Shown here: positions 39,475 to 58,791 of the stretch, in pieces
How the letters are laid out: each line of letters begins with the position of its first letter
Numbering within the stretch: position 1 is the stretch's first letter
Assembly (NCBI GenBank): GCA_964423515.1
Contig: CAYRFL010000001.1
Coordinates: forward strand, 1 to 64,000
DNA from: an uncultured archaeon
Lineage (GTDB): Archaea > Thermoplasmatota > Penumbrarchaeia > JASLWR01
Reading direction: 5' to 3'
Length of the DNA stretch: 64,000 nt
Position numbers and translations under genes: made by a program
The notes under the pieces: generated by a model
Told to the model about the DNA's origin: nothing
Database searches by the model: none
What the model saw: the letters and a program-made list of their open reading frames with translations, nothing else

Positions 39475-42400
39475 TCATTTTTTCAACACAAGCTTCATAC
39501 CGCAGTCCTCGCACTCGAATTCCAGCGGACGTTTGGTAGAGGTGACCGTCTGTATGCTCTCGCATTTCGGACACTTGATCTTCACGCGTTTGGCAGGTGT
39601 CTTTTCCGCAGTGTCCTTCTTGGTGCTCTCGGGCAGGGCGGCTGGCGCCTTGCCCTTCGGCAGCGCCTTGGTCTTCAGGAGGTCCTTCTCGATGTCCTCC
39701 TTCTTGACCTTCTTGCCCGCCTTCTCCTCCTCCTCGGCCATCTCCTTCTCGGCCTCGGCCCTGGCCTTGGCTATCTCATCCTTGTATTCCTCGGGGACGG
39801 GCCTCTTTGGGCGCGACAGGATGAGGATGATGACGAATAGAAGGAGGAATCCCACCACTGCAATGAGTACATAGAACAGGGTGGCTGCCTTCCCTTCCGT
39901 TGCAATCTCCCATACGCCCTCTCCCTTCTCCTCCTCCTCTACCTCCACGGATATCTCCTCTTCCTCCTCGTCACCGGATGGTTCGTTGGTGAACATCACC
40001 TTGATCTTGTGCTTGCCATCGGTGACCTTGGCCTCGACCCATTCGAAGCGGAATATATCGGTGGTCTCGGGTTTCAGCGTGACGTCCACGTTCCCGATCA
40101 GTTTGTCGTTGTCATACACGTCCACTGACTTGTCTTCGATGTCGGCGGAACCTGCGTTCGTTAACTTGATGAGGATCACGTTCTCCTTTCCTGCCTCCAC
40201 TGTCTTCCCATCATCGTTGAGATCCTCAAAGGAGATCGGGGTATCTGGATCAAATTGGAGTATCGGTAGCTTGATGTTCACCTTGAACTCGTAGTATTCC
40301 ACGCTATCGTCCTCGCTCTCCGCCTTTATCTTGATATCATATCCATTGGTCCTCTCCTCCACGTCGTCGGGGGGCGTGATCTCTATTGTCACCGTCTCGG
40401 TATCGCCCCGAGCGATCTGTTTCGAAGCGGGCAATATGGTTATCGTCCAATCCTTGTTGGGCTTGGTCTTGACTGTCAAACTCACCTTGTCATCGGTATT
40501 TCCACTGTTGGTGATATCTATCTTGAAGTTAAGCTTGGAGTCCTCCGCAGGATTGAGGTCTTCCTCATCACCTTGACCGGATGATTCCAATTCCAACAGA
40601 TTTACCTTCTCGATCTCCAGGCTGAAGCTGTTTTCGATGTTCTCCACTGTGTCGTCTCCCAATGATATCGCCCTTAGGCCGATGGAATAATCCCCTGCTT
40701 CATACTCCTCGACGTCGGTGCCGATGGTGAAGACAACCTTCACCTCCAATTCCTCCCCCGCGTTTAGGTAATCTGTGGTGGAACCGCCCTCTATCGTCCC
40801 CCATTCCCGCTTGTCCCCGGTGAGATAGAACTTGAACTTGTCGGGTCCGTTGCCCTTGTTCTTCACCGTGAAATAGAAGTCCACATCCTCCGAGAGTGGG
40901 GTCTCGAGGTTATCGATCTTCCCGGAATTGCTCCAGTCCTGGCTCTCGATCTCAAGGGCATATTCCTGTGTGATGGTCGTGGTGAGCATGACGTTGACCT
41001 CGTACTCCTCGTCGCCCTCGCCGGCCGTGGAGGTGATATTCGTGTGATAGGTCCCCCGAAGGGCCTTGGAGTAATCGCTCGACAGCTTCACGGTGATGGT
41101 GACATCGGCGGATTCACCAGAGGGCAGGGTGATGCTGGAGGGCGAGACAGTCCTGGTGCCCCACTTGATCACCTCGTCGGGTAGGGTGACCGTGATGGTA
41201 TCGTCCCCGTTGCCCTTGTTCTTCACCGTCAGGGTGTACGTCAGGCTCTCACCGGGCTGGCCCTCCTTGGTGGTCTGCAATGCGGTGACCTTTATCTCGT
41301 GTATGGCGGTGACGTCGACAGTGAAGGTTATGGTCTCCACTATGTCCTCTGCCTCGTCATAGAGGGTGTCGTCGCCCCTCGATATCACCTTTATCCTGAT
41401 GTCGTAATCCCCCACCGGTTCGTCCCGGTCTATGTTCACTGTAAGCCTGAAGGTCTGGGATTGGTCCTCGGCCAGATCCATGGTCTCGTTATCGATGGAG
41501 ATGTCGTCCCATCCCTTCGGCTTGTCGTCGATCTCCAGCTTCACGATGTCGTCGCCCGTCCCGATGTTGGTAACCTTGAAGGGGAACTCCAGGGTCCTCT
41601 TCAGGGACGAGGAGGATTCGAGCTCTCCGGTCTCCTTCCTCTTCTTGGAGGCCGCCAGCTCGAGGCCGTAGGCGGTCTCGATGACGGTGTAGAGCGTCAC
41701 GTTCGTCCCGATGTCGTCAACAGTCCCGCTGTTCTCACCGGGTGAATAGACGTATATGATCGTCTTGAAACCATCAGGCCCCGTGGGCTCCTGATTGTTT
41801 GGTATCTCTACGGTAATGGTCACCGTGGCGTCCCCGTCGGCATCCAGGGAACTGATGGTCTTGGTGGAGCGGGTGACCCAGCTTGCATGGTCCGATTCGC
41901 CCGCCACGACCTCGATCTTGAAGTTGTCCTTGTCGGTTCCCTTGTTGGTCACCTTCACCGAGTAGCTCACCTTGGCCTTGGTTCCGCTTAGGTTCGGCGT
42001 AACCTCCTTCCTGTCCTCGGTCACTTCAAGGGCCACGTCCCTCTTGGGGTTCACGTGGGTGGTGGTGATTATCTTCTCGGTCACACCGTCGGGATCGTTC
42101 TGCGATTCCGCTTTCAGGACGACCTTGTAATCACCCACCTCTTGGTCCTCCGGGGGCGTCACGTTGATGGTGACCCTGAAAGAACGTCCGGGCCGGAGGT
42201 CGAAGCCCAGCATGTTTGCGGGGATCTCAGCCCAGCTGGAATAGGCGCCGTCGCTTCCCTCGGTTACGATGGAGACCTCGATGCGATCGTCGCCCGTACC
42301 GTCGTTCTTCACGTCGATAAGGTACTTTACCATGGCCCCGGGGTCGGTCTCCTCGTTGAGGTCGTTGCTGGAAAGGCGTATGGCAAACTCCTGTTTCACT

Positions 42401-45400
42401 GTGGTGAGGAGTTCGACGCGATCGACGATACTGTCGTTGCCGCGGGACGTCACGTTGATGCTCATGGGGAAGGTCATGGGCTCGATGGAATGAGGTATCG
42501 AGATATTCACCTTGACTGTGGCGACCTCCCCTGCCTCCAGGGTGAGGGTGGAGGTCTCCAGCGTGACCCAACCCATGTAGGTGTTATTGCCGTATTTCTC
42601 TATGTCATAGGTATCTTCGCCGTTGCCCTCGTTCTCCACTTCCACCTCGTAGATGGTCCATTCCTGAGGAGCTATCTCGTCGGTCCTGTCGCTGCAGGTG
42701 AGCCGGACCCCGTAATTCTGAAGCACCTCCATCTTGAGCTGTAGCGTTGCCACCACTTCATCGCCCTTGGAAAGTATCCGATCCGGTCCTGCGGAGCGGA
42801 GCGACAGGTTGAAATAGAAATCTCCCACGTTGGCATCCTCATCGATGAGCACCTCGATCCGGAACTCCAGGCTGTCAGACGCGTTTATCTCGGCGACGGA
42901 GGGAGTTATGGTAACATCGTCGAAGGGACAGTCCTTCTCGTCCAGTCCGAATATATCGCTGGCGGCGGATCCGGTGTTCTTGACCTCTACCAGATAGTTC
43001 ACCGTATCTCCCGGAAGTGCCTTATCGAAATCGTTGTCCGTGGTTATGGAGCCGTCGTACTTGGCCTTTACCGTGGTCTTGAAACCGAGATCGAAAGTTG
43101 ACGTGGGGTCCCCTCGCGACTGTGCCGAGATCGTGACGGTTCCGGAAGTGATCCCGGGGTATTTCTCGTGGGCATCGGCCGGAATGGTCACCACGAACGA
43201 TATCTTCTTGATCCCGTTCCTCTCCAGGTTGGTAATGGTATAGTTCTCGTAGGCCATGCTTACCCAGTTGGTAAAGGGGAACTCTCCCGAAAAGGACATG
43301 TCGAAGGTATCCACGGCAAGCCCCCGGTTCTGGACGCCAAGAAGATATGTCACGGCATCTCCCGCATCGGCCTCCGATACGTTTCCGCCGTCCGCGAACA
43401 GGTACACCTCGTAGAGCGGCTTGACCTGGGTCCTCGTGGCCAGTGTGTCGGACTTGTCCACCCCCTTGTCCTCGGCTCCCTTGGATTTCGCCGTCACGTT
43501 CACGTAATAGTAACCCGCCGGCTGATTGACGGGAATGCTCACGGTCAGATTTACAGTGGAATGGGCATTCGGCTGCAGCGTATAAAGGGTCTCGTTCACC
43601 GAGCTCCAGTCCGCATTGTCCCCGGCATCGATGGATATCTCGATGAGGTCCTCTGCGTTCCCATCGTTGGTTATGGTTATGATATAGTATATGGTATCCT
43701 CTGGATAGCCCTTCTGGTTGGCATTCTTGCATGTCAGTATAACGTTGTAATTCTTCTGAATATTGATTATTATCTTGCTCGAGTTGTCCTTGGCGTTGGC
43801 ATCTCCATCGGAGACCGCTATGAGCTCAACCTCCATGGGGCCGAAATTCTCGTAATCGCCCGGAACCGTAACTGTCAGTCTTACGGTTTCCTCGGCTCCC
43901 GCTTCCAGCGTCACGCTGCTATCCGAGAGGGCCCAGGACCATCCAGCGAGGATGCCGGTCTGTGAGATATCGATGGTGTCCTCACCATTTCCCTTGTTCT
44001 TCACCGTGAAATTGTATGTTTCGGTGTTTCCCGGATATACATCCTTGGAGTTGGAGCCGGGGATGCTGACCTGAACCGCGAAGTCCTGCTCGACGTCCAC
44101 CGTCACCGTGGAGTTGGTTACTGCGTCCTCATCGTCCCGCGATTTGGCGGTTACCAGCAGGCTAAAACCCTCGTGCAGTGCATCCGCAGGCACGGTCTGC
44201 ACAATGGTGAACTGGCCCGTGGCTTCGGAGGCCAGGGCAAAATAGGTGGGTGAGATATTTGGAGAGGACCATCCCTGCGGGGGGATTGCGGTTATGTCTA
44301 TTCGGTCCTGCCCGTTGCCGGAATTTGTCACGGTGAACGTGAAGGTGGCGGTTCCGCCCTGGGGGGCCTCCACCGACGAGTTGTCGACGCTGAGCGATAG
44401 ATATCTTTCCTGAAGAATGGTCGTTATGGTATATGCCATCTCATTCTGGCTGGCGTTGTTCTGGGAGGCCACGGTAACGTTGACCTTGCCCTGGTCGGAG
44501 TCCTTTGCATTTATGGGGGCCGTTACATACAGAGATACATTGTAGGCATCCCCGGCATTGACCTGGGGCGTGGTGGACGTCCCCAGGGTGGCGGTCCAGC
44601 CCACCGATTTATTTCCGTCGTCCACCGCCAGGGTGAAACGATCTCGAGCATTGCCGATGTTGGATATCTCCAGTGTGTACGTCACCCTTCCACCGGGCAG
44701 CGCATCGAGGTTTCCGCTTGGCAGCGTGCTCACCGAGAGACCGTAGACGGCCGTGACGGTGACGGTCAATGTCTTGGTCGTGTAGGTAACGGTATCCTCG
44801 GAGGTACCCCGCAGGGTAATGCTGTAGGTACCCGTGGAAGCTCCATCGGGTATGTATATTGCAACCACCAGGTCTGCCACTGTGAAGGGTTGAAGGTTCT
44901 TGGTGGAATCGTAGGATACGGCCCAGGTCGGCGGAGCTCCGGTATCGGTGAAGGCGGTGGTGTCTATGCCATTGCCCGTATTGTTGACTGGAAGGGTAAA
45001 TGTCACCGTATTGTCAGGTTCCGAGGATTGGATGGTATTGGCCGTCTCGAAGAGAAGCCCATAGACCTGATCCACGTTCACACGGCAGGTATCCTGCTTG
45101 TTGTTCGTCGTGTCCTTTATCGTTATCGATGCGGAATCTGTGTCGCCGGCATTCGCAGGAATGCTTACGGTCAATATCTCCACCTGATGGCTTCCGGCGC
45201 TCAGTGTGAAATCACTTCCGGTGAGCGTTGTGGTCCAGCCGTTCGGAGTACCGATGATCGTCAGGTTGATGGTGGCTATGGCATCGCCGTTGTTCTCGAT
45301 CCTGACGTCGAACAGTATATCGTCCCCGGGGTCGCCGCTCTCGATGGAACCACCGCTTTCCTGGCCCGTGATCTCAAGCGTTACGATGGGACCCGCGCTG

Positions 45401-45540
45401 ACGTTCTTCGCCATGAATACTAGTACGGACAGCGAAGACATGATCAATGTTATCGCAATGAACACGTTCATCATTCTTTTTATGATATCTTTGGACATTT
45501 TATCTTCCTCTGGTACATTTATTGTATCCCTGATTGCCAA
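39475..45540 (-). CDS. Giant (2021 aa) cell-surface protein: signal peptide, about 17 tandem CARDB/NEW3-like Ig-fold repeats, TM, Lys/Glu-rich cytoplasmic tail ending in a C4 zinc ribbon
   Basis: Repeat signature [FY]x[LFV]xVxNxGNxxDxhxh recurs about 17 times (e.g. 'YTLEISNIGNARDRFTL', 'FTFTVTNSGNGQDRIDI', 'YNFTVKNKGNGEDTIDI', 'YTLTVKNKGNGDDTITV', 'FYFTVKNKGNGPDKFKF'). TM 'LFYVLIAVVGFLLLFVIILILS'. C-terminus 'CPKCESIQTVTSTKRPLEFECEDCG'. The likely start is the Met at about 45498. Confidence 0.8.
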   Translation of the reverse strand: MAIRDTINVPEEDKMSKDIIKRMMNVFIAITLIMSSLSVLVFMAKNVSAGPIVTLEITGQESGGSIESGDPGDDILFDVRIENNGDAIATINLTIIGTPNGWTTTLTGSDFTLSAGSHQVEILTVSIPANAGDTDSASITIKDTTNNKQDTCRVNVDQVYGLLFETANTIQSSEPDNTVTFTLPVNNTGNGIDTTAFTDTGAPPTWAVSYDSTKNLQPFTVADLVVAIYIPDGASTGTYSITLRGTSEDTVTYTTKTLTVTVTAVYGLSVSTLPSGNLDALPGGRVTYTLEISNIGNARDRFTLAVDDGNKSVGWTATLGTSTTPQVNAGDAYNVSLYVTAPINAKDSDQGKVNVTVASQNNASQNEMAYTITTILQERYLSLSVDNSSVEAPQGGTATFTFTVTNSGNGQDRIDITAIPPQGWSSPNISPTYFALASEATGQFTIVQTVPADALHEGFSLLVTAKSRDDEDAVTNSTVTVDVEQDFAVQVSIPGSNSKDVYPGNTETYNFTVKNKGNGEDTIDISQTGILAGWSWALSDSSVTLEAGAEETVRLTVTVPGDYENFGPMEVELIAVSDGDANAKDNSSKIIINIQKNYNVILTCKNANQKGYPEDTIYYIITITNDGNAEDLIEISIDAGDNADWSSVNETLYTLQPNAHSTVNLTVSIPVNQPAGYYYVNVTAKSKGAEDKGVDKSDTLATRTQVKPLYEVYLFADGGNVSEADAGDAVTYLLGVQNRGLAVDTFDMSFSGEFPFTNWVSMAYENYTITNLERNGIKKISFVVTIPADAHEKYPGITSGTVTISAQSRGDPTSTFDLGFKTTVKAKYDGSITTDNDFDKALPGDTVNYLVEVKNTGSAASDIFGLDEKDCPFDDVTITPSVAEINASDSLEFRIEVLIDEDANVGDFYFNLSLRSAGPDRILSKGDEVVATLQLKMEVLQNYGVRLTCSDRTDEIAPQEWTIYEVEVENEGNGEDTYDIEKYGNNTYMGWVTLETSTLTLEAGEVATVKVNISIPHSIEPMTFPMSINVTSRGNDSIVDRVELLTTVKQEFAIRLSSNDLNEETDPGAMVKYLIDVKNDGTGDDRIEVSIVTEGSDGAYSSWAEIPANMLGFDLRPGRSFRVTINVTPPEDQEVGDYKVVLKAESQNDPDGVTEKIITTTHVNPKRDVALEVTEDRKEVTPNLSGTKAKVSYSVKVTNKGTDKDNFKIEVVAGESDHASWVTRSTKTISSLDADGDATVTITVEIPNNQEPTGPDGFKTIIYVYSPGENSGTVDDIGTNVTLYTVIETAYGLELAASKKRKETGELESSSSLKRTLEFPFKVTNIGTGDDIVKLEIDDKPKGWDDISIDNETMDLAEDQSQTFRLTVNIDRDEPVGDYDIRIKVISRGDDTLYDEAEDIVETITFTVDVTAIHEIKVTALQTTKEGQPGESLTYTLTVKNKGNGDDTITVTLPDEVIKWGTRTVSPSSITLPSGESADVTITVKLSSDYSKALRGTYHTNITSTAGEGDEEYEVNVMLTTTITQEYALEIESQDWSNSGKIDNLETPLSEDVDFYFTVKNKGNGPDKFKFYLTGDKREWGTIEGGSTTDYLNAGEELEVKVVFTIGTDVEEYEAGDYSIGLRAISLGDDTVENIENSFSLEIEKVNLLELESSGQGDEEDLNPAEDSKLNFKIDITNSGNTDDKVSLTVKTKPNKDWTITILPASKQIARGDTETVTIEITPPDDVEERTNGYDIKIKAESEDDSVEYYEFKVNIKLPILQFDPDTPISFEDLNDDGKTVEAGKENVILIKLTNAGSADIEDKSVDVYDNDKLIGNVDVTLKPETTDIFRFEWVEAKVTDGKHKIKVMFTNEPSGDEEEEEISVEVEEEEKGEGVWEIATEGKAATLFYVLIAVVGFLLLFVIILILSRPKRPVPEEYKDEIAKARAEAEKEMAEEEEKAGKKVKKEDIEKDLLKTKALPKGKAPAALPESTKKDTAEKTPAKRVKIKCPKCESIQTVTSTKRPLEFECEDCGMKLVLKK

Positions 45541-47679: not shown

Positions 47680-47779
47680 TGCCGGGGGCGGGGTTCGAAC
47701 CCGCGACCTTCGGATAGCCCAGGAGCTCATGTAAGATCCCTATGAGTCCGACGCTCCAACCAGGCTGAGCCACCCCGGC
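47680..47779 (-). tRNA. Elongator tRNA-Met (anticodon CAT) interrupted by a roughly 25-nt intron at the canonical 37/38 position. A CAU tRNA-Ile2 cannot be excluded
   Basis: Minus-strand read: GCCGGGG TG GCTC AGCCTGGTTG GAGC G TCGGA CTCATA[GGGATCTTACATGAGCTCCTGGGCT]A TCCGA AGGTC GCGGG TTCGAAC CCCGC CCCCGGC A. All four stems are Watson-Crick. G1-C72 excludes an initiator. Intron CATGAG pairs with exon CTCATG (bulge-helix-bulge-like). Confidence 0.75.
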
Positions 47780-48598: not shown

Positions 48599-49246
48599 TC
48601 ACCCCGTTCTCTTGCTGATGCTACCATCCTTCAGGAATACTCTCCTTGAAGCCTTCGCAGCCATTTCCCTGTCGTGGGTCACGACGACGATCGTGACTCC
48701 CTTCTCCCTGTTCAGCATCGTCAGCAGGTCCCCTATCTTTCGGCTCGTCTTCGAGTCCAGTTCCCCGGTCGGTTCGTCGGCCAGAATGACCCGGGGCTCA
48801 TTTGCCAGCGCCCTGGCTATGGCGATCCTCTGCTGCTCTCCTCCCGATAACTGGTTCGGAAAATGTCTTTCCCGGTGCAGGAGGTCCACCATGTCCAGCA
48901 CCTCCCTCGCCCGCTCCTTTCTCTTCTTTCGCCCCAACCCGGCCTCCTTCATTGGAAGTGTTATGTTCTCTATGGCCCTCAGGGTCGGGATCAGGTAGAA
49001 CTGCTGGAATATGAATCCTATCTTCCTCAGTCTGAGGCGGCTGAGGTATGAATCCCTCCTGTCGGTGATATCCTCTCCGTCGAAGATCACCCTGCCGTGG
49101 GTCGGTCGGTCTATACAACCCAGCAGATTGAGTAGGGTGGATTTCCCGGAACCGGATGTGCCCTCGATGGCCAGGAATATACCCTCGGGAACATCGAGAG
49201 TGAAATCCCGGAGAGCATATACCTTGCGCCCCCCCATCTCATACAC
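48599..49246 (-). CDS. ABC transporter ATP-binding protein (MacB/LolD/FtsE-like)
   Basis: Walker A 'GTSGSGKST'. Signature 'LSGGEQQR'. Walker B 'ILADEPTGELD'. H-loop 'VVTHD'. The GTG start appears N-terminally short, and no canonical start codon lies upstream. Confidence 0.8.
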   Translation of the reverse strand: MYEMGGRKVYALRDFTLDVPEGIFLAIEGTSGSGKSTLLNLLGCIDRPTHGRVIFDGEDITDRRDSYLSRLRLRKIGFIFQQFYLIPTLRAIENITLPMKEAGLGRKKRKERAREVLDMVDLLHRERHFPNQLSGGEQQRIAIARALANEPRVILADEPTGELDSKTSRKIGDLLTMLNREKGVTIVVVTHDREMAAKASRRVFLKDGSISKRTG

Positions 49247-49320: not shown

Positions 49321-49890
49321 TCAAAGGCTCCATCTACCGTAATCATCGGCGATCTTTCTCTTCAATACGATCTCGCACTCGCCACATACCAGTCGACCGT
49401 TATCACACATAAGAGTCGCCGTGCACTTGTGACATTCTGACTTGATGATACCGAGTTCCTTCTCGGCCGTGGATATCTCCAGACTGGGCTCGGTCTGGAT
49501 CACCCTGCCCCTTATAATGTCGTTCTCGGAGAAGACCTGATAGGTATCTTTGACGAATTCTACGGATATCTTCGATATATGAAGTCTGGCATATCTATTT
49601 CCGGCGATATTCCTATCTTCGCCTCTTCTGGAGAACAGGTCTACGTACACATACCCCTTGGCAATCCTGACCACACGACCTATCACAATGTTCCCCTCAC
49701 GGAGAATGACCGGTGATGAGCCCTCGGGGACGATCTTCGCGGTCATCTCGCTCATGCACAGGTCCAATCTACCCGGGACCGCCGCATATATCCTACCCAT
49801 TTCTTCATACGTTCCCTCATCCGGAATGAACTCCTCCGTCGTCGCGATATAATCACCGGGCAGAAGCACTCTTCCTTCTTCATCGTCCAT
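49321..49890 (-). CDS. csl4: Exosome complex RNA-binding subunit Csl4 (S1 domain plus C-terminal zinc ribbon)
   Basis: S1 'GNIVIGRVVRIAKGYVYVDL'. Zn ribbon 'CHKCTATLMCDNGRLVCGEC'. The start is moved to the Met at 49890. Confidence 0.75.
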   Translation of the reverse strand: MDDEEGRVLLPGDYIATTEEFIPDEGTYEEMGRIYAAVPGRLDLCMSEMTAKIVPEGSSPVILREGNIVIGRVVRIAKGYVYVDLFSRRGEDRNIAGNRYARLHISKISVEFVKDTYQVFSENDIIRGRVIQTEPSLEISTAEKELGIIKSECHKCTATLMCDNGRLVCGECEIVLKRKIADDYGRWSL

Positions 49891-50202
49891 TCGGTTCACT
49901 TCTTCTTCAGCTTTCAGCAAGAGAACTTTCTTCTTGCTATAAAAAAAATTGGTCAAAAAAGGAAAAACCTCTCGCTCTACTGATCCTTTATAGGTGAAGA
50001 CGAGGCTTGCTGGCCCGTCTTCTTGGTAAAGTCGAGCCAGGAGGGCTCGGCTTTACACGTTAGGCCAGGAGTCTCGAATATTCCGCTTGACATCGGGTGT
50101 GAATTGAAGGCGAGGATAATTATTAAATAGCATTACCTTTTTGTATGGATTTTAATTATGCCATGATCGTCTGTAGATGATTATTGGGTAAGGTGGTTTC
50201 AT

Positions 50203-53200
50203 ATGAACCGGGATGAATTGAGAAAACGTTTCAAGCTCGACAAATGGGCCAGGGTCTCCTTCTCCCTGGTCGCGGTGCTCGTACTTCTGCTCTCGACCAT
50301 AAGCGTCGTCTATATCGCCTATATTAACCGAATCCAGAGGGAACGGGAACAGGAGGATGAGATCACATCCAACATGGAATACAAGGTGAGCGTTGCCCAG
50401 GCGGACGTGGAAACGCAGGCGTATCTGATAGGAATGGACGCGATATTCGAGGCCACCCAGAAGGAGAACGATCAGAATCGGATAGTCCCCATATTCGAAG
50501 AGAAGTTCGACGAATACATGGAGAAATATACGAACGAGGGCGGCCACACCGAGGGAGATTATACAATCACGGTGGATGATTACGACGTGGACCTCGGCCT
50601 AGATTCCAAGATGACCGACGATTTCATACCCGTTGCCGGCCCGGGTGCTTCCGACGGGGAGAGCCTGGAGGACATCGACATGGGATCGGTGGAGGAGACG
50701 GAGGAATCTCCAACCAATTGCTATTACAGGGTCGATGCGGAGATCAAATACACGGTGGACCACAAGGATACGGGCAAGAAGCTCGACAAGAACATGACGT
50801 TCTCCAAGACCATCGAGACCCCTTATCCGATAATTCAGAACAAGTTCAGCCAGTTCCAGAGCGCCGCGGAGATGGGATCCAGCGAGCTTGGCCGAATGGT
50901 CCAGTACATTCTCGTCACCATTGCCCAGTACCGCGTTCTTCAGGGGTATGGCGCATCGGAGATCGATGGAAATAAGTTCGGGGGAGGGACCACCGATGAG
51001 ATAATTACCACCAAGGACGTGGAGCTTGCGGTGAACCTGGCCGTTCTTCTCGAGAGTGCAAAGCTATACAGGGACTTCGACAAGGGATTCCTGGCGGAAT
51101 TCGAGGTCAACAACGAGGGGACCGATACGACCATGGCATCCCTGATAAACACCTGGATAATCGAGGAACAGATCGATCCCGCGGACATAATCGCCATTTA
51201 CCAGGGAGTGGAGGACGAAGAGCTGCACCTCGAGGTGATACTGGGGCAGGCGATATATGCCCTTACCGATCAGTTCGTCATGAAATACCTCTCCTATTTC
51301 GGATTCGACAAGGTCCTGGACGTGGTATGGCAGGTGGCCCAGATAGGCAAGAATGCTCTCGAGGGCTTCTTCGAGTGGGTATCGGGCCTGTTCCCGGAGG
51401 AAGAGGACAAGCGTGCGGAGGTGGTGAAGAGCTGGGTGGGCGAACAGTTCGAAAGGGCGGAGATCGATACCGAGTTCATGTACGATACCACCGTTAACAT
51501 CGATGAGAAGACGTATCCGGTGGGTTTCCACAAGGACGGCACCTGTTCGCACAACGAGGATACTGACGGCGACCCGGAGACGGGAAAGGAACCCGTGAGC
51601 TATAAATGGGACGTTGATACCAGATACACCGTCGTGATACCCTCGGGGACGGAGACAGCCGATTTCGATCAGAAGGACATATTCCGTGAAGAGGTGGACT
51701 GGATTTGGGAGAATTTCTACGATCATTATTTCACCAAGGACAACGAGAAGAACGTGGTCAAGAGCCTGTCCGAGACGCTAAAGGACATATCCGTGGCAAT
51801 TGCCGCAAATTTCGCCCAGATAGACGGTCTCAGCGAGATATTCGACGACTACAGATACCTCCCCACGGGCGCACTCGTTCCCAGCGATAACGTCTCTCTC
51901 ATGGAGACCATACAGCTACACGTCGTCGGTTTAATGACCGAGGTCATCGACTTCTTCAAGGGCGATCAGGGGAAGGACGGCATCAAGGCGCTCATACTGG
52001 ATTTCATATCCGACCACAACGATATGCTCTACGGCCTGCGGGATGAAATAACCGCTTACTTCGACGAGTTCGTGGCCAAGGACATGAACATCGACCTGGC
52101 CACCGAGAGGCTGACGGAAAATCTCATGAGCGCCGCATACGTCAGGAACGGAGAGGGGAACATAGTGGAGGTGGACAATCCCGAGGAGATCAAGTACCCC
52201 GACGTTCCGCCGCAGCCGAACCAGGACCCGGGAATGCTTCCCCGGAACGTTCCCTACATACATCAGGTGATCGATACTCCCGGATGGTTCAACGGGGACT
52301 GGGCCTGCGGGGCCACATCGGCCATGATGGCCCTTGCCTATTACGGGATCCTGCCTGCGGAAAGATGGGACAACGACATATGCGAGGAATACACCTACAA
52401 CGGCTTCACCTTCAATCAGGTGGCCAACGATCCAAGCGGCACCCCTGCCAAGGGCGGGTACGGCTACATCTGCCAGAACAACTGGGAGAACACAAAGGCC
52501 CACATGGCGGGATATGCCCAGAAGCACGGCCTTACCTCATCGGTGGATTGGTCCCCCACTTGGGGCGAGCTGACCACTGAGATAGATGCCGGTCATCCGG
52601 TTGTACTTCTAACGAGCCTTACGGGCCCGGGGCATTATGTCCTTGCCATCGGATACAGGCCCGACACCAGGGTCGTGGTGGTGAACGATCCCTACGGCAA
52701 CAAGAACCTGGGATACGTGAACTATCACGGGGCGGCGGCCGAGTATGACTGGCCCGGTTACAATTACGGGAACTCGAACATGAACACGCTCCACTGCTTC
52801 ATCTATTTCAAGGGTACCCCCCCGGGAACCCGGGGCGGGGTCACACCGGATGAATGGCAGGTGATGCAGTGCCCCTACGAGGAGCATCCTCCCCTGGACG
52901 CAGGCAGCCTGCCCAAATACTCGGAGGAGGAGATACTCGCGAAATTCTCGGAGAAATGGAGATGCGATGTGGAGGCCTATTCCCGAAGCCTCGTTACCGC
53001 GGCCTACGAGGAAGTGAAGAACGAGGAGCTCAGGATCTTGAAGGAAGCGGTAAGCGAACTCGCCAAGACCACCGGAAATGAGATACTGGACATGATCGTG
53101 GACGGAGCGGCCACGATCGGACAGGCATCCGGGCTCGTGCCCGTGGCCTGCGCATTCGTGACCACCGTGGCGGCGGATATCATCCACTCGTCCGACATCA

Positions 53201-56052
53201 GGAACTTCAACTACTTCATGCCCCTGTCCATGGGGAAGAAGTTCAACTTCTGGAGCGGCGAGCTGAGCCTTATCGATGCCAAGAAGAAGGGGAAGGCGTA
53301 CTTTGAAGAGATTAACGTCGATATGAAACCGGACTATCTCGTCAACGGCAGCGAGTTGGAGATAGTCATTGAGGAGCCCTCGGGGGTTCACTACACCAAC
53401 CTGACCGAATTCCACGCAAGACCCTTCGAGACCACCTGGAACATAGTTGTCACCGGCTCCTTCACCCTCACGACCAAGAGCGTCAGCAAGGGTCTGATGG
53501 TGGACGGAAAGCATCGTTCCGCTGTCAAGACAGACAAGATCGAGCTGAACATATCGTCCCCCATCATCGTCTATTCGGGGTGGAACCTCGAGGGAGTGGA
53601 TTACTGGGAGACCAGCACGCTCTGGGGCGATATCGCGGAGATCATAATGAAGTTCCTCTCCATGGTCTGGGATGCCATCACCGGGGTCATTGGATGGCTT
53701 ATCGACGGGTTGATGAAGATAGTGACGGTCCTTGTGAACATCATTCACGCGATAGTGAACTTCGCATCCAAGGTGATAAAGATCATCGTGGACGTTTTCA
53801 CGTGGATCATCGAGAAGATACGGACCTTCATCCAGGAATCGCTGGACCTGGTGGCCAAGGCGATCATGGGGGTGGCCTACCTACTGGGAGACGGTTTCAA
53901 CTTCACGGCTTTCGGAATACTTTTCAATGTTACGACGAAGTTCGAGGACGGCGACATGCCGGCGGAGGGCTGGGAATGGATGACCCGGATATCCTCCCGG
54001 TTGAACGTTAAGGACTTCGGGTTGGGATTCGACCTCAACGTGGTCAGGAAGAACGGGACCGACGATTACGACATACTGGTGACGTCAGGTCTGAAGGTCG
54101 GCGATTTTATACTGGAGGTTGCAATGGACCCGTTGATGGCGGTCTGGCCGAGGTTCATCGAGGGGCACGGAATATACCTCAACGAGACCGGACAGGGATT
54201 CGCACTTGATTTTACCAGCCCGGAGATCGACACAGGCTGGTCCGTCCTCGGTTCGATCAAGTTTGCCAAAGGCTACGTCAAGAAGGTGGTGAAGATACCT
54301 GCCAGCAAGATAACCATTCCCCACGTCGGAACCGCCCAGGCGGAGCTGGGCATCAAGCTGAGCTGGCCGAAGAGCATAAGGGTGGACGGAAAGACCATCG
54401 GAGCCAAGGTGAACGAGACCTTCTACGAGGTATGGCACGGTCTTGGCGGCAGGTTCCCCATGGACGGCGATGTGATCGACCAGTACTCCAAGAAGCTGGC
54501 GGAGAGCCTGAAGGAGAACCTGGCCCCGGTCCTGGTCGATCTCGGAAGCGACGTGAAGATCGAGATATGGTTGAAGCTCGAGATAAAACCGTTCGGCGGG
54601 CGTTTCAAGGTTGCGGGCCTGAGCGGTTACACGGTCTGGAGAACCACTCTCAAGTTCGACATGAACCTGGGTAAGGATTTTGTCAAGACCATGGATTATT
54701 TCAAGGCCTATTCAAGCAAGTATCTCGAGAATCCCGGAGAGCGTCCCAAGAAGGAACCGCTGCCCGAAACGGGTATCGACGTCAAGTTCAGCACCGAGGT
54801 AAAGGTGCAGGTGAAGAAGATATTCAGCTCACCGGTACAGATCCCGCTCATAGGGGTCGATGCCAAGGGAGAGGTGGGAGCTTCCATATCCTGCAAGTAC
54901 ACGTATAGAGAGGAGGCCACGCAGGCCTGGGATGACATCAAATCGGACCTCGATGCCGATTGGGAATCCGCAAAGGCCGGGGAGGCCATGAAACGCCTGG
55001 GCGACAAGATAGGGGGCTTAGTCGGCTATCTCGGGGACAATACCGAGGTGAAGACCTGGGTCAAGCTGCATCTTTCGAAGGAGTTCGGGAGCTACGGGGA
55101 CCTGGCATCCACCATTAACGTCGCATTCACCATAAAGGGCAAGGATACCGTCGTTGACGGATACAACTGGATAAAGAGCAATATCGACAAGTATCTGCTG
55201 AAACCGGGCGAGAATATCACAGCGTCCCCGCCCCCCAACGTCAAGATACGGATATACGTGACCACCGAGCTCGGACTGAAGCACAAGGTCGCAAAGATAC
55301 CGATCCCCGCCATCGGGTGCACGGCCGACGTTACCATAGGGTTCAGATTCACCCTGAAGTTCTCCACGACTACGAACCTGTCTGAGTTCATCGACTTCAT
55401 GAACATGTCCTTCGACGAGGTGGACCGGGAGACGAACGATACTCCCCGGGATCAGGGCCTGATAGAGATCTACTCCCAGAAGATAATCGTTAAATTGAAG
55501 GAGGCCCTGGATTACGTTCTGGACAACGGACAGATATCCTTCTACGTCAGATTCGACCTGGACGTGGGTGGGCTCGACGCACTTGAGGCCGGGATCGTCC
55601 TGAAGTTCATTATGAAATGCAGTCTCAGAGGTCTTTGGGAGGTTATGAAATGGGTAATGGGAAGCGTTGGAGCCTTCGTCAACAACGTGCTCAATCCCGC
55701 AAACGCCGCCAAATCCCCCGACGTTCCCAAGGAGTATCTTGAGAAGATACATATCGAGTTCGAGGCCTTCCTCCAGGCCGGGCTGCCCGATATGATAAAG
55801 GATGTCACCGGAGGTCATGTGGGATTCAAGGCCAGGCTTTCCCTCATAATCAGGACCAATCTCCCCATGCTTGCCGCGATATTCGGCCAGGATTGGGGGA
55901 GGTTCAGCGCCAGTTTTGGAGTGGTGCTGAAACTCGATCTGACGCTGAAGTTCGGTTTGGAGGACCTCTTTGGATTCATGGATGCGGAGATGCATCCCCA
56001 CGCCTGGTTCCGCCTCTGGTTCTTCTATGCGAGAATATATGAGATAGAATAG
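50203..56052 (+). CDS. Giant (1949 aa) type-II membrane-anchored protein containing an internal Peptidase_C39-like (PF13529-type, papain-fold) cysteine peptidase domain
   Basis: N-terminal signal-anchor 'VSFSLVAVLVLLLSTISVVYIAYI'. C39-like domain near nt 52240-52720: 'VPYIHQVIDTPGWFNGDWACGATSAMMALAYYGI...DAGHPVVLLTS...GPGHYVLAIGYRPDTRVVVVNDPYG' carries a Q/C/H/D catalytic set. The rest has no recognisable domains. C-terminal region has amphipathic hydrophobic helices. Confidence 0.8.
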   Translation: MNRDELRKRFKLDKWARVSFSLVAVLVLLLSTISVVYIAYINRIQREREQEDEITSNMEYKVSVAQADVETQAYLIGMDAIFEATQKENDQNRIVPIFEEKFDEYMEKYTNEGGHTEGDYTITVDDYDVDLGLDSKMTDDFIPVAGPGASDGESLEDIDMGSVEETEESPTNCYYRVDAEIKYTVDHKDTGKKLDKNMTFSKTIETPYPIIQNKFSQFQSAAEMGSSELGRMVQYILVTIAQYRVLQGYGASEIDGNKFGGGTTDEIITTKDVELAVNLAVLLESAKLYRDFDKGFLAEFEVNNEGTDTTMASLINTWIIEEQIDPADIIAIYQGVEDEELHLEVILGQAIYALTDQFVMKYLSYFGFDKVLDVVWQVAQIGKNALEGFFEWVSGLFPEEEDKRAEVVKSWVGEQFERAEIDTEFMYDTTVNIDEKTYPVGFHKDGTCSHNEDTDGDPETGKEPVSYKWDVDTRYTVVIPSGTETADFDQKDIFREEVDWIWENFYDHYFTKDNEKNVVKSLSETLKDISVAIAANFAQIDGLSEIFDDYRYLPTGALVPSDNVSLMETIQLHVVGLMTEVIDFFKGDQGKDGIKALILDFISDHNDMLYGLRDEITAYFDEFVAKDMNIDLATERLTENLMSAAYVRNGEGNIVEVDNPEEIKYPDVPPQPNQDPGMLPRNVPYIHQVIDTPGWFNGDWACGATSAMMALAYYGILPAERWDNDICEEYTYNGFTFNQVANDPSGTPAKGGYGYICQNNWENTKAHMAGYAQKHGLTSSVDWSPTWGELTTEIDAGHPVVLLTSLTGPGHYVLAIGYRPDTRVVVVNDPYGNKNLGYVNYHGAAAEYDWPGYNYGNSNMNTLHCFIYFKGTPPGTRGGVTPDEWQVMQCPYEEHPPLDAGSLPKYSEEEILAKFSEKWRCDVEAYSRSLVTAAYEEVKNEELRILKEAVSELAKTTGNEILDMIVDGAATIGQASGLVPVACAFVTTVAADIIHSSDIRNFNYFMPLSMGKKFNFWSGELSLIDAKKKGKAYFEEINVDMKPDYLVNGSELEIVIEEPSGVHYTNLTEFHARPFETTWNIVVTGSFTLTTKSVSKGLMVDGKHRSAVKTDKIELNISSPIIVYSGWNLEGVDYWETSTLWGDIAEIIMKFLSMVWDAITGVIGWLIDGLMKIVTVLVNIIHAIVNFASKVIKIIVDVFTWIIEKIRTFIQESLDLVAKAIMGVAYLLGDGFNFTAFGILFNVTTKFEDGDMPAEGWEWMTRISSRLNVKDFGLGFDLNVVRKNGTDDYDILVTSGLKVGDFILEVAMDPLMAVWPRFIEGHGIYLNETGQGFALDFTSPEIDTGWSVLGSIKFAKGYVKKVVKIPASKITIPHVGTAQAELGIKLSWPKSIRVDGKTIGAKVNETFYEVWHGLGGRFPMDGDVIDQYSKKLAESLKENLAPVLVDLGSDVKIEIWLKLEIKPFGGRFKVAGLSGYTVWRTTLKFDMNLGKDFVKTMDYFKAYSSKYLENPGERPKKEPLPETGIDVKFSTEVKVQVKKIFSSPVQIPLIGVDAKGEVGASISCKYTYREEATQAWDDIKSDLDADWESAKAGEAMKRLGDKIGGLVGYLGDNTEVKTWVKLHLSKEFGSYGDLASTINVAFTIKGKDTVVDGYNWIKSNIDKYLLKPGENITASPPPNVKIRIYVTTELGLKHKVAKIPIPAIGCTADVTIGFRFTLKFSTTTNLSEFIDFMNMSFDEVDRETNDTPRDQGLIEIYSQKIIVKLKEALDYVLDNGQISFYVRFDLDVGGLDALEAGIVLKFIMKCSLRGLWEVMKWVMGSVGAFVNNVLNPANAAKSPDVPKEYLEKIHIEFEAFLQAGLPDMIKDVTGGHVGFKARLSLIIRTNLPMLAAIFGQDWGRFSASFGVVLKLDLTLKFGLEDLFGFMDAEMHPHAWFRLWFFYARIYEIE

Positions 56053-56162: not shown

Positions 56163-57473
56163 TCACTCCTTCTTGTTGAGAAGATCGTCCTTCAGCTTGT
56201 TGAAATCGTCCGGACCTATAAGTCCCTTCTCCCTCCACCCGATAAGCTTCTCCATCTTCGAGAACCTGTCGTCACCGGACATCTCGACCGTATCCGCAGG
56301 GGATTTCTCGTGCCCCGGGCCCACCGGAGACCTGAGGCCGGATGCCCCTTTTTCCGCGATGCTGTCGGATGCACCCTTGATGGGTAAGCCTCGGCTCTTC
56401 CACAGACCCTCGACATCCATCTCGATCCCATCCTTCCCGCCGCCCTTCCCACCGTCCTTCCCACCACCCTTCTTGCCGTCCTTCCCACCGCCATTAACAT
56501 CCTCCTTCTCCGTTTTATCACCGCCTCCTTGAGCCTCCCCTTCCTTAGCTTCGTCCTCGCCTCCTCCGGTTTTCCCGCTCTGATCGCCCGTTCCCGGAAT
56601 GGATACCTTCCTCGTTACCAGCTTCTTTTTACGGACCGTCTTTCGTGCCTTGCCGAGCTCCTCTTCGAATCTCAGGAACTGGTTGAAGAGATGGGCAAGG
56701 ATCTCCTTGATATTGTCCCTCTTCAATCCGTCGCTGGATTCCATTATCTCTCCCAGGAGCGGTTTGATGGCCTTGTCGCCGAACTTCTTGAGTATCTCCT
56801 TGGCCGCAGTCCTGGCCCTTTCATTGGTCTCGTCGCCTCCAAGGATGCCGATGAGAGGCTCGATGGTCTTTGTGGAGCGGAAATTTCCCAGGGCATGGAC
56901 GACCTCCTCCCGTACCTGCTCGTCCTGGTCCCTGAGCATGTTCACCAGGGGTTCTATGGACGAGGGGGCACGTAATGCGCCCAGGGCCGAAATGACGCTC
57001 TTCTGAACATTGATGTCCGGATCCTTCAATGTCTCGATGAGCGGACCCACCGCCGCGCCGTCCCCGATGTCCTTAAGGAGCGAGATGACCTGAAGCCTGA
57101 CGCTGCGATCCTTGTCGGAAAGAAGGGCTATCAGAGGACTGACTGCCCTGGTCTCATGCGAGAGCGCCTCCACTGCCGCCTGACGCACCATCTTGTCCCT
57201 GTCCTTCAGCGCCTCGATCAGCGGCTCCAGGGCCTTCTCGGTCCCGAACAGCTCCAGGGCTTCAGCAGCTGCTTTCTGGACCCTCCACTCCCGGTCGTAT
57301 CTTACCACCTCCAGAAGATGTCTCACGACACGGGGATCTCCGGTCTCACCCAGCATCTTTACGGTCCTCTCGCGTATCACGACGTTATCATCCTGAAGGA
57401 GAGAAAACAGCTCCTCCAGTTCATCTTTAGTAGATTTCCCACCGACATCGACCTTTTCCCCATCGGGCTCCAT
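56163..57473 (-). CDS. Cytoplasmic PBS-lyase/HEAT-like repeat protein with a Gly/Lys low-complexity region and a C-terminal SHOCT-like domain
   Basis: At least 7 repeats of the type 'DxDxxVRxxAxxALGxhGxxxAhxPLIxxL'. The '(GGKDGKK)n' tract is encoded by tandem 15-21-bp DNA repeats at 56440-56520. C-terminus 'RFSKMEKLIGWREKGLIGPDDFNKLKDDLL' is SHOCT-like. Confidence 0.6.
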   Translation of the reverse strand: MEPDGEKVDVGGKSTKDELEELFSLLQDDNVVIRERTVKMLGETGDPRVVRHLLEVVRYDREWRVQKAAAEALELFGTEKALEPLIEALKDRDKMVRQAAVEALSHETRAVSPLIALLSDKDRSVRLQVISLLKDIGDGAAVGPLIETLKDPDINVQKSVISALGALRAPSSIEPLVNMLRDQDEQVREEVVHALGNFRSTKTIEPLIGILGGDETNERARTAAKEILKKFGDKAIKPLLGEIMESSDGLKRDNIKEILAHLFNQFLRFEEELGKARKTVRKKKLVTRKVSIPGTGDQSGKTGGGEDEAKEGEAQGGGDKTEKEDVNGGGKDGKKGGGKDGGKGGGKDGIEMDVEGLWKSRGLPIKGASDSIAEKGASGLRSPVGPGHEKSPADTVEMSGDDRFSKMEKLIGWREKGLIGPDDFNKLKDDLLNKKE

Positions 57474-57561: not shown

Positions 57562-58731
57562 TCAATAATCCCATTCGTCCCATCTTTCACTTCCGTGATC
57601 ATCATAACGATGAGGGGTGGAGGAGCTCGGACGAAAACGAATACCCCTGCATCTCTCGCATGTCCATCTTCTGGAATCGGGATCGTAAACCTGCTCTTCC
57701 GAACATTTCGGGCACAGGGGGGACCACAGTCGTTTTCCCTTTCCAGCCGCCGACACTTCCTTTCTTCGATGGGGGGAGAAGAAAAAGTCATCCCTCGGGT
57801 CTAATGAACCACGGCCCGTTAGCCACAGCTCATCGTCCGCTTCCCCTCGTCGTTGTGTATCCTCGGGCTTACGAGAACGCGGCTTTTTCATCACTGAGTT
57901 CAGGACCAGACCGACAATGGCAATAAGGAGGAATATAAAAAATAGGACCAGGCCAGGATGCTCCTCCATGAGATATTGCACAGGATTACGGGATCCCCCT
58001 TCCTCATCGGGATCGTATTGTTCGCCGGTGAACTCTATAACGGTGACGACCGCGTCCAGATACTCCGGAGGAATGTCCCCTATGCCCCAGTCCGACCCGG
58101 TGGTCTCTGCATAATAATATTCCTTTCCATTGTGAATGACATTGGTACCGGAAAGGTCGCTTCCCGCCACCCCCACGGCCATGTGACCAGGTTCATCCAC
58201 GGTTCCCGGGATCAGAAAGAGGACCGCATCGTATTCCAGAAGTATGATAAGGGTGGCAAAGAGTATGGATGTATCCTCGCAATCACCTCCCCGGTCGGCC
58301 AGGGTTTCCAGGGGAAAGCGCGGGTACTCGTCATAACCGGTCGTTACCTTGTCCGATGTATAATCGAGGCTCTGGATGAACGAGAGGACGAAGCTCACCT
58401 CTTTCTCTCCATCGTAGCCCTTCCTCCGGCTGGCATTGTGAAATTCCCCGGCCGCCTCCACGAGAGTATCGTCCCTCGTGGTTATCATGCGTCCGTAGTT
58501 CCTTCTCTTTTCCACTGCGAAATCCTTGTATGAGTTCAGACGCTGGAGAGATATATTGAAATCCCAGCTCCACTGGATCGTGGATAGTTGAGATTCCTTG
58601 AACTCCCACTCGTAATGAAGGACTATCTCATCCTCGGCGACTGCCGTGGCCCACGGACCTGCCGACAACAGACAGAATACGATCAATCCCAATGAGAAGA
58701 GTTCCAGGGAACGGCAACTCCATCGCCCCAT
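57562..58731 (-). CDS. Secreted/membrane-anchored transglutaminase-like (papain-fold Cys-His) domain protein with TM and cytoplasmic C4 zinc ribbon
   Basis: Signal peptide. 'GGDCEDTSILFATLIILLEYDAVLFL' (Cys, C-x-x-x-x-x-F-A pattern). 'GHMAVGV' (His). 'YYYAETTGSDWGIGD' (Asp/Glu). TM 'LVLFFIFLLIAIVGLVL'. Tail 'CPKCSEEQVYDPDSRRWTCERC'. Confidence 0.55.
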   Translation of the reverse strand: MGRWSCRSLELFSLGLIVFCLLSAGPWATAVAEDEIVLHYEWEFKESQLSTIQWSWDFNISLQRLNSYKDFAVEKRRNYGRMITTRDDTLVEAAGEFHNASRRKGYDGEKEVSFVLSFIQSLDYTSDKVTTGYDEYPRFPLETLADRGGDCEDTSILFATLIILLEYDAVLFLIPGTVDEPGHMAVGVAGSDLSGTNVIHNGKEYYYAETTGSDWGIGDIPPEYLDAVVTVIEFTGEQYDPDEEGGSRNPVQYLMEEHPGLVLFFIFLLIAIVGLVLNSVMKKPRSRKPEDTQRRGEADDELWLTGRGSLDPRDDFFFSPHRRKEVSAAGKGKRLWSPLCPKCSEEQVYDPDSRRWTCERCRGIRFRPSSSTPHRYDDHGSERWDEWDY

Positions 58732-58791
58732 GGAACCTGGTGTCCGAAAGGATTCCCCGCTGAGCCAGCCAGACAAGTATTTACCCCCTTT

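Follow-up and report, generated by a model that had tools for sequence, protein, structure and literature searches.

Why should a very large surface protein of an archaeon carry an apparently complete cysteine peptidase domain in the middle of its chain? This question was raised by a stretch of 64,000 nucleotides (nt) from an uncultured member of the Thermoplasmatota (positions 1 to 64,000 of contig CAYRFL010000001.1, assembly GCA_964423515.1), which is called the window here and contains the gene of a protein of 1949 amino acids (aa), called the giant. An earlier note, made from the sequence alone, had placed an intact-looking C39-like domain of the PF13529 type at window positions 52240-52720, within a type-II anchored protein, and had proposed either autoprocessing of the giant or a tethered enzyme. 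The reading that we favour, with a probability of about 0.5, is that the domain is a tethered accessory enzyme which would cut bacterial peptidoglycan on contact.

Identity and integrity of the peptidase domain

The domain was matched by PF13529 (Peptidase_C39_2) with an E-value of 1.1e-18 and 68.7 bits against a cut-off of 24, over aa 682-831 (window 52246-52695) and profile positions 2-143 of 143. The motifs quoted in the earlier note were found at aa 683-688 (VPYIHQ), 700-706 (WACGATS), 810-818 (GHYVLAIGY) and 827-833 (VNDPYGN), so that its family and place are borne out, while model confidence and the alignment of relatives put the end of the folded domain at about aa 870 (window 52812), beyond the 52720 reported before.

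The four predicted catalytic residues, Gln688, Cys702, His811 and Asp829, are invariant, and the VPYIHQ, W-ACG, GH(Y/I) and DPYG motifs are kept throughout 8 homologues of the giant, one large protein outside its family (P0025) and 9 shorter relatives, the giants being 55-82% and the other relatives 33-64% identical. When a profile of the relatives was compared with the Protein Data Bank (PDB), the order of Gln, Cys, His and Asp matched the solved structure 3ERV motif by motif. The structure model is confident over the domain, and a Foldseek search against the PDB returned papain-like toxins and AvrRpt2 with probabilities of 0.99-1.0, a papain-like fold that can be superposed on a solved member of the family. 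By every feature tested the domain is therefore a member of PF13529; its catalytic residues are intact, as the earlier note had supposed, and catalytic activity is predicted. Among orthologues, identity is 68-85% in the C39_2 domain and 49-76% in the N-terminal scaffold. With the domain at least as conserved as the scaffold that carries it, the comparison indicates that it is under purifying selection. The C39 family of bacteriocin exporters (PF03412) was rejected as an identity, as no match to PF03412 or to an ATP-binding cassette (ABC) domain was obtained in the 1949 aa at E-values up to 1.

The invariance of the catalytic residues also bears on the idea that the papain-like fold has been retained as a non-catalytic binding module for adhesion. 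Other inserts at the same site of the scaffold are adhesin-type immunoglobulin (Ig)-like domains (PKD, Big_5), which would suit such a role. However, the four residues and their motifs are invariant across the giants and the other relatives, and we consider a purely adhesive role extremely improbable.

Insertion into an archaeal scaffold

The homologue search returned 8 homologues at 55-100% identity, all with PF13529 and 7 of them full-length, together with about 15 Thermoplasmata proteins of 1300-1700 aa, from metagenome-assembled genomes (MAGs), in which the C39_2 domain is absent. In one domain-less relative, P0009, aa 7-685 align with aa 13-672 of the giant and aa 686-1169 with aa 906-1390 (BLAST), and a clean block of about 240 aa in the giant stands against 5-29 residues in most of the aligned domain-less relatives (153 in P0022). 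Because the domain-less relatives are collinear on both sides of this block, the alignments indicate that the C39_2 domain and both of its linkers are a lineage-specific insertion into a pre-existing scaffold. The GC content at third codon positions (GC3) is 0.755-0.758 in the insert, 0.747-0.794 in most of the gene and 0.679 in the C-terminal unit. Recent horizontal transfer of the insert was rejected on these values, and since its GC3 equals that of the rest of the gene, the insertion appears to be old and retained.

The downstream linker (linker 2) has the consensus VTPDEWxVMQCPYxEHPPxDAxSLPK, with Cys890 invariant among orthologues. It is absent from domain-less relatives, and the alignments of standalone C39_2 relatives to the giant stop at or before about aa 893; on this pattern linker 2 came in with the C39_2 insert, and it could be a regulatory, cleavage or docking site. 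In the structure model, the C39_2 domain looks like a globular enzyme on two tethers.

The scaffold itself belongs to a large family. An exhaustive profile search with the N-terminal module found at least 348 clusters at 50% identity, 274 of them with E <= 1e-10, and all genome matches were to Thermoplasmata/Methanomassiliicoccales-type MAGs; hardly any further homologues came from repeating the search with the family alignment. BLAST to P0009-P0024 found collinear N-terminal, middle and C-terminal modules with an N-terminal anchor, and 32 columns are invariant across 22 family sequences, the invariant residues of the middle module including H1063, W1079, W1127, W1156, G1238 and D1309. At least 140 representatives among the matches listed carry no C39_2 domain, which was found only in the giant's own cluster (150 matches listed, about 145 of them fetched, and the earlier hits).

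These numbers bear on the first of the two proposals in the earlier note, namely that the domain serves maturation and cuts the giant (for example at aa 871-905) or other proteins on the surface of its own cell, so that fragments are released or activated. A linker that is predicted to be disordered, yet is 74-89% conserved and has an invariant Cys890, would suit a cleavage or regulatory site and speaks for some self-interaction. However, scaffold maturation does not need C39_2, because about 140 of the representatives among the matches listed are without it. There are 9 GG dipeptides in the giant, and the one adjacent to the domain (RGGV, aa 877-880), a cleavage motif of the kind that the earlier note had suggested looking for, is not conserved, being RGDV in 5 of the 7 aligned orthologues. 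There is also no ABC-exporter context and no PF03412 match, and the co-insertion of a GH25 domain in an orthologue has no self-processing role. Autoprocessing is therefore regarded as quite unlikely, and it is the other half of the proposal, the tethered enzyme, that is supported by the low-confidence linkers and the optional nature of the module.

The sizes of the insertion sites were measured by module hidden Markov models with a score filter. Site 2, which holds C39_2 in the giant, is about 6 aa long in many members and 28-45 aa long in others; the C39 clade has 267-281 aa there, one clade has 630-810 aa with PKD/Big_5 Ig-like domains, and one protein has 1396 aa. At site 3 the gap is 65-90 aa, about 220 aa with a lamin-tail domain and 410 aa in the C39 clade, the last because a unit of about 170 aa has been duplicated in tandem. 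Three such units end the giant, with a similarity against shuffles of z = 14.2 between units 1 and 2 and z = 7.2 between units 2 and 3; from this, units 1-2 (window 54490-55572, aa 1430-1790) are read as a clade-specific tandem duplication of the family's C-terminal unit. The structure model of aa 906-1949 is poor (mean predicted local distance difference test score, pLDDT, 54). The scaffold family was found to be undescribed, and its sequences indicate at least three permissive sites at which PKD/Big_5, lamin-tail, GH25 and C39_2 domains are swapped. PF23957 (DUF7286) was rejected as unproven for the family: the giant had no match, and 3 of the 22 relatives scored 18-21 bits against a cut-off of 27, with sub-threshold matches confined to the N-terminus (in the two matches shown, no more than the initial 38-67 of 1000 profile positions). 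No literature was found on DUF7286.

Membrane anchor and predicted topology

The N-terminus of the giant has 7 K/R residues before a hydrophobic stretch at aa 14-44 (peak hydropathy 2.6), a region that is covered by a modelled helix at aa 20-87 and conserved across the scaffold family, in agreement with the type-II anchor described earlier. The cargo in its homologues is of extracellular type (PKD, Big_5, lamin-tail, GH25), and standalone C39_2 relatives start with hydrophobic, signal-like N-termini. Because the N-terminus follows the positive-inside pattern and the inserted modules are typical of extracytoplasmic proteins, the topology is predicted to be N-in, C-out, which would put nearly the whole giant outside the cell. 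A class III (pilin-like) signal peptide seems unlikely for the conserved N-terminus D-x-x-A-R-V-S/P-F-A, which has an Arg after the would-be cleavage site, an atypical residue at that position. No other Pfam or NCBIfam family was significant across the 1949 aa (the NCBIfam scan was empty), which agrees with the earlier statement that recognisable domains are lacking on either side of the peptidase.

The gene is solitary and divergent from a Csl4-like exosome gene at 49321-49956. An ABC ATPase gene at 48599-49246 is a separate gene of MacB type on the other strand.

Association with peptidoglycan-degrading domains

No conserved partner gene was found beyond local synteny in the 5 homologue contexts compared, and because there is no conserved neighbour, the substrate is deduced from domain partners and relatives. 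The orthologue P0004, which is 71% identical to the giant and syntenic with it (large CARDB/NPCBM protein, Endo_dU, HAD hydrolase, ABC ATPase and Csl4), carries C39_2 and a GH25 domain (PF01183, aa 172-349, E 5.5e-44), at whose insertion the BLAST alignment breaks at query aa 150 and 159. This GH25 domain matches the Streptomyces muramidase Cellosyl (1JFX) with an E-value of 4e-32 and keeps the catalytic D and DxE. Murein is the substrate of the characterised GH25 enzymes, which are muramidases. In P0025, the closest relative of the domain outside the family (3236 aa, Ig-rich), an M23 domain lies directly upstream of C39_2. Among phages, gp9 of cyanophage S-CREM1 is a fusion of Phage_lysozyme and C39_2, and in phage DSL-LC02 the genes for a C39 peptidase and a lysozyme are two genes apart. 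The domain also resembles lysin C39_2 domains in structure: BFVD gave 8 confident structural matches (probability 1.0, E 3e-5 to 2e-3), six named lysozyme, endolysin or peptidoglycan-binding protein and two unnamed, and a PHROG endolysin profile matched the giant with an E-value of 4e-5.

The premise of the earlier note that such domains are normally standalone proteins or parts of ABC exporters is incomplete, since PF13529 is one of the catalytic domains recognised in multi-domain phage lysins (PMC8310338, PMC8223927) and is listed as a catalytic lysin domain in phage-lysin surveys (PMC8310338, PMC8223927, PMC5017753). PeiR is an example of a C39-fold enzyme that can break a cross-link in the wall and so bring about cell lysis (PMC6189367). 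The domain associations are independent of each other and agree on peptidoglycan, which, by guilt by association, is the substrate that we infer.

The same partners have to be weighed against a broader role as a general extracellular protease, which would degrade detrital proteins and peptides at the cell surface with no wall specificity, as proposed for sediment archaea. Such a role would fit the many large secreted or surface proteins encoded in the window (NosD/PKD, CARDB, NPCBM_assoc), which suggest a rich extracellular toolkit, as well as the lack of a wall-binding domain in the giant and the often broad action of papain-fold enzymes such as streptopain and staphopain. However, the domain partners in relatives are muralytic (GH25, M23, phage lysozyme) with no other general proteases among them, and wherever a confident viral structural neighbour has a name, it is that of a lysin or a wall-binding protein. 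We therefore consider a general protease unlikely. Feeding proteolysis does overlap with the digestion of bacterial walls.

Another candidate target, by analogy with PeiR, is the pseudomurein of neighbouring methanogens. PeiR lyses pseudomurein-containing methanogens (PMC6189367), and the hosts of the giant are related to Methanomassiliicoccales and could share habitats with Methanobacteriales. Yet the domain is 17% identical to PeiR and 26% identical to a Bacillus C39-like protein, a Pfam scan of the giant found no pseudomurein-binding repeats, and the partner of the domain in the orthologue, GH25, is a muramidase. GH25-type lysozymes are not known to cut pseudomurein. Pseudomurein is accordingly a very unlikely target.

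Returning to the peptidoglycan reading, the C39_2 domain would be an accessory module inserted in one Thermoplasmata/Methanomassiliicoccales lineage at a permissive, surface-exposed junction of a giant that a single N-terminal helix would fix in the cell membrane, the remainder lying outside. Two flexible linkers would hold an active Cys-His peptidase at the cell surface, where it would not be released and, on contact, could cleave the peptide moiety of bacterial peptidoglycan. At least one sister lineage has a GH25 muramidase on the same scaffold, which would act jointly with C39_2, and the gain could lie in harming nearby bacteria or in using their walls as food.

Several points weigh against this reading. 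The literature search found no measured activity or substrate for the giant or for close members of its C39_2 subfamily. In the Pfam scan of the 1949 aa, the giant had no cell-wall-binding or second muralytic domain, the GH25 domain being present only in the orthologue. C39_2 domains are not always muralytic, as leader peptidases, toxins and acyltransferases share the fold (PMC10318531). An enzyme tethered to the membrane can act only on targets that touch the cell, and no delivery step is known. Lastly, the apposition of Cys and His is a prediction from the structural superpositions. The literature on YvpB gave no functional data.

Some loci of related C39_2 proteins were recorded in addition. 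P0025 (L004, 8001-17711; GCA_036804745.1, DAIRRU010000037.1) is a giant surface protein with two wall-peptidase-type domains, and its domains are CARDB, M23, C39_2, I-set, fn3, Big_13, Big_9 and Calx-beta; one of its neighbours has a weak OMP_b-brl match. Two genes downstream of the standalone C39_2 relative P0029 there is a gene with a weak GH19 match (L032, 1882-2427), a further weak tie of the C39_2 subfamily to muramidase-like genes. P0041, a relative of 254 aa with 39% identity to the domain of the giant (L006, 7001-7765; JGI 3300062347, contig Ga0606064_0039), lies on a 92-kb contig with eukaryotic-looking neighbours (Cyclin_N, COG2, SMCHD1-like, C2) and may represent a transfer of the C39_2 domain into a eukaryote.

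The hydrophobic hairpin and tape-measure proteins

A conserved hydrophobic hairpin in the middle of the giant had PHROG matches only to the tail length tape measure protein (E 8e-6), and the equivalent place gave tape-measure matches in 4 of 5 divergent relatives. The similarity of the hairpin (E 1e-6 to 1e-3, about 90 aa) is weak and may be compositional. The giant was rejected as a phage tail tape-measure protein, as the match covers only the hairpin of about 90 aa and the neighbours are housekeeping or cellular genes with no phage tail gene context.

Phage tail tape-measure proteins with embedded muralytic domains, such as T5 pb2, are like the giant in being very long and largely helical and in having a hydrophobic hairpin and internal muralytic domains; the giant, unlike them, has an N-terminal membrane anchor and no tail gene context. 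Extending this analogy, the whole scaffold family would be a contact device like T5 pb2, an anchored stalk with a hairpin that could insert into the membrane of another cell, armed in this clade with C39_2 (and with GH25 in the sister lineage) against peptidoglycan. We regard this extension as a long shot. If true, archaea would have here a weapon against bacteria that depends on contact, or else an apparatus for attachment or fusion.

Features of the giant and other observations

The features of the giant are collected in Table 1.

Table 1. Features of the giant surface protein, with window positions
Feature	Residues (aa)	Window positions	Strand	Basis
Giant surface protein gene, stop codon included	1-1949	50203..56052	+	Open reading frame list; full-length homologues at 55-82% identity
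K/R-rich tail, predicted cytoplasmic, and single transmembrane anchor	1-18 (tail), ~19-41 (anchor)	50203..50325	+	Hydropathy, model, conservation
N-terminal scaffold module, helices and long beta-hairpins, most conserved part of the family	42-665	50326..52197	+	
Permissive site 1, disordered hairpin-tip loop	143-165	50629..50697	+	pLDDT <50; GH25 site in orthologue P0004
Proline-rich linker 1, PDVPPQPNQDPGMLPRN, upstream edge of the insertion	666-682	52198..52248	+	pLDDT <50 at aa 652-674; boundary against P0009-P0011
Peptidase_C39_2 domain (papain-fold cysteine peptidase)	683-870	52249..52812	+	Pfam, model, alignment
Gln688, predicted oxyanion-hole residue (VPYIHQ)	688	52264..52266	+	Invariant in 11 relatives; aligned with VPFIQQ of 3ERV
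Cys702, predicted catalytic nucleophile (WACGATS)	702	52306..52308	+	Invariant; aligned with Cys of 3ERV and of PCAT protease 6MPZ
His811, predicted catalytic base (GHYVLAIGY)	811	52633..52635	+	Invariant; aligned with His of 3ERV and 9L5U
Asp829, predicted third catalytic residue (NDPYG)	829	52687..52689	+	Invariant; aligned with DP motif of 3ERV and 9L5U
Linker 2, GTPPGTRGGVTPDEWQVMQCPYEEHPPLDAGSLPK, predicted disordered	871-905	52813..52917	+	pLDDT <50 at aa 876-900; orthologue conservation 74-89%
Middle scaffold module	906-1390	52918..54372	+	Aligns with P0009 aa 686-1169, directly after P0009 aa 685
Conserved hydrophobic helical hairpin	1141-1228	53623..53886	+	Hydropathy; two long helices in both models, low confidence
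Three related units of ~170 aa	1430-1600, 1601-1790, 1791-1949	54490..56049	+	Local alignment against shuffles

Directly downstream of the giant, window 56163-57473 (-) encodes a HEAT-repeat protein (436 aa) in which a Gly/Lys-rich segment of low complexity, GGKDGKKGGGKDGGKGGGKDG, lies near the C-terminus. It is followed at 57562-58776 (-) by a protein of 404 aa with a signal-like N-terminus, a transglutaminase-like Cys-protease core (GGDCEDTS ... GHMAV), a weak DUF553 match (E 0.01), a transmembrane segment and a C-terminal zinc-ribbon-like CxxC pair; this protein also adjoins the giant on a JGI contig (L030) and is not in the P0004 locus. A surface protein of 2021 aa with repeated NPCBM_assoc, FixG_C-like Ig and CARDB domains is encoded at 39475-45540 (-), and in the P0004 locus (L005) a related protein of about 2000 aa with a comparable set of domains is encoded upstream of the giant. 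At 4514-8884 (-) there is a protein of 1456 aa with an N-terminal SPFH/Band 7 domain and TPR repeats at about aa 1080-1150, which has mostly no family match. A tRNA of 100 nt at 47680-47779 (-), scored at 58.2 bits by the Rfam tRNA model and not listed by ARAGORN, probably contains an intron, fitting an archaeal origin. Besides the Csl4-type exosome gene, the window contains an Endo_dU gene.

Comparison with known systems

In the order of its Gln, Cys, His and Asp residues, the domain resembles 3ERV, a putative C39-like peptidase of Bacillus anthracis. Proteins of the 3ERV type are small, secreted and of a single domain, whereas here the domain is an internal insert in a membrane-anchored archaeal protein of 1949 aa. 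The exporter peptidases of PCAT1 and ComA (C39, PF03412) are cytoplasmic, in contrast to the predicted extracellular position of the domain in the giant, and the double glycine beside that domain is not conserved among the aligned orthologues.

The C39_2 phage lysins ('PET_C39' in PhaLP, including S-CREM1 gp9) belong to the same domain family, and the pairing with a muramidase in S-CREM1 gp9 is mirrored by GH25 and C39_2 in P0004. However, the phage domains are only 26-28% identical to that of the giant, and phage lysins are soluble proteins of 200-500 aa that act from inside the host at lysis, while the giant is cellular, chromosomal and, as predicted, permanently tethered, in an organism presumed to be free of murein. 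PeiR (Methanobrevibacter provirus phi-mru, PDB 8Z4H) has the same fold as the C39_2 domain, with 17% identity; it is viral and soluble and has pseudomurein-binding repeats, unlike the giant.

The archaeal hydrolases of Strock et al. 2025 are similar in being enzymes for a substrate found only in bacteria, with a patchy, lineage-specific distribution and seemingly acquired domains (PMC12352652). They are secreted and modular and are defined by a catalytic and a wall-binding domain, and C39 is not mentioned in the text (PMC12352652). The giant falls outside this definition, as Pfam found no LysM, PG_binding, SH3 or similar domain in it, and its enzymes, unlike those hydrolases, are grafted into a native giant membrane-anchored scaffold.

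Three aspects of the locus appear to be new. One is the insertion of lysin-type domains in a native archaeal giant membrane-anchored protein, another is the modular scaffold family, and the third is the implied contact-dependent degradation of walls by one of the Thermoplasmata, which presumably make no murein. It is only recently that the killing or digestion of bacteria by archaea has been documented, and the tools known for it are small secreted hydrolases found through pairs of catalytic and wall-binding domains (PMC12352652). The locus suggests a second design, which searches for such pairs miss, in which wall-cutting domains are carried on a cell-anchored giant of the wall-less Thermoplasmata and would need contact in order to act. 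Should the peptidoglycan reading be right, the locus would offer a way to test for antagonism between archaea and bacteria, or for feeding on necromass, in anoxic habitats, and a natural scaffold on which enzymes could be displayed.

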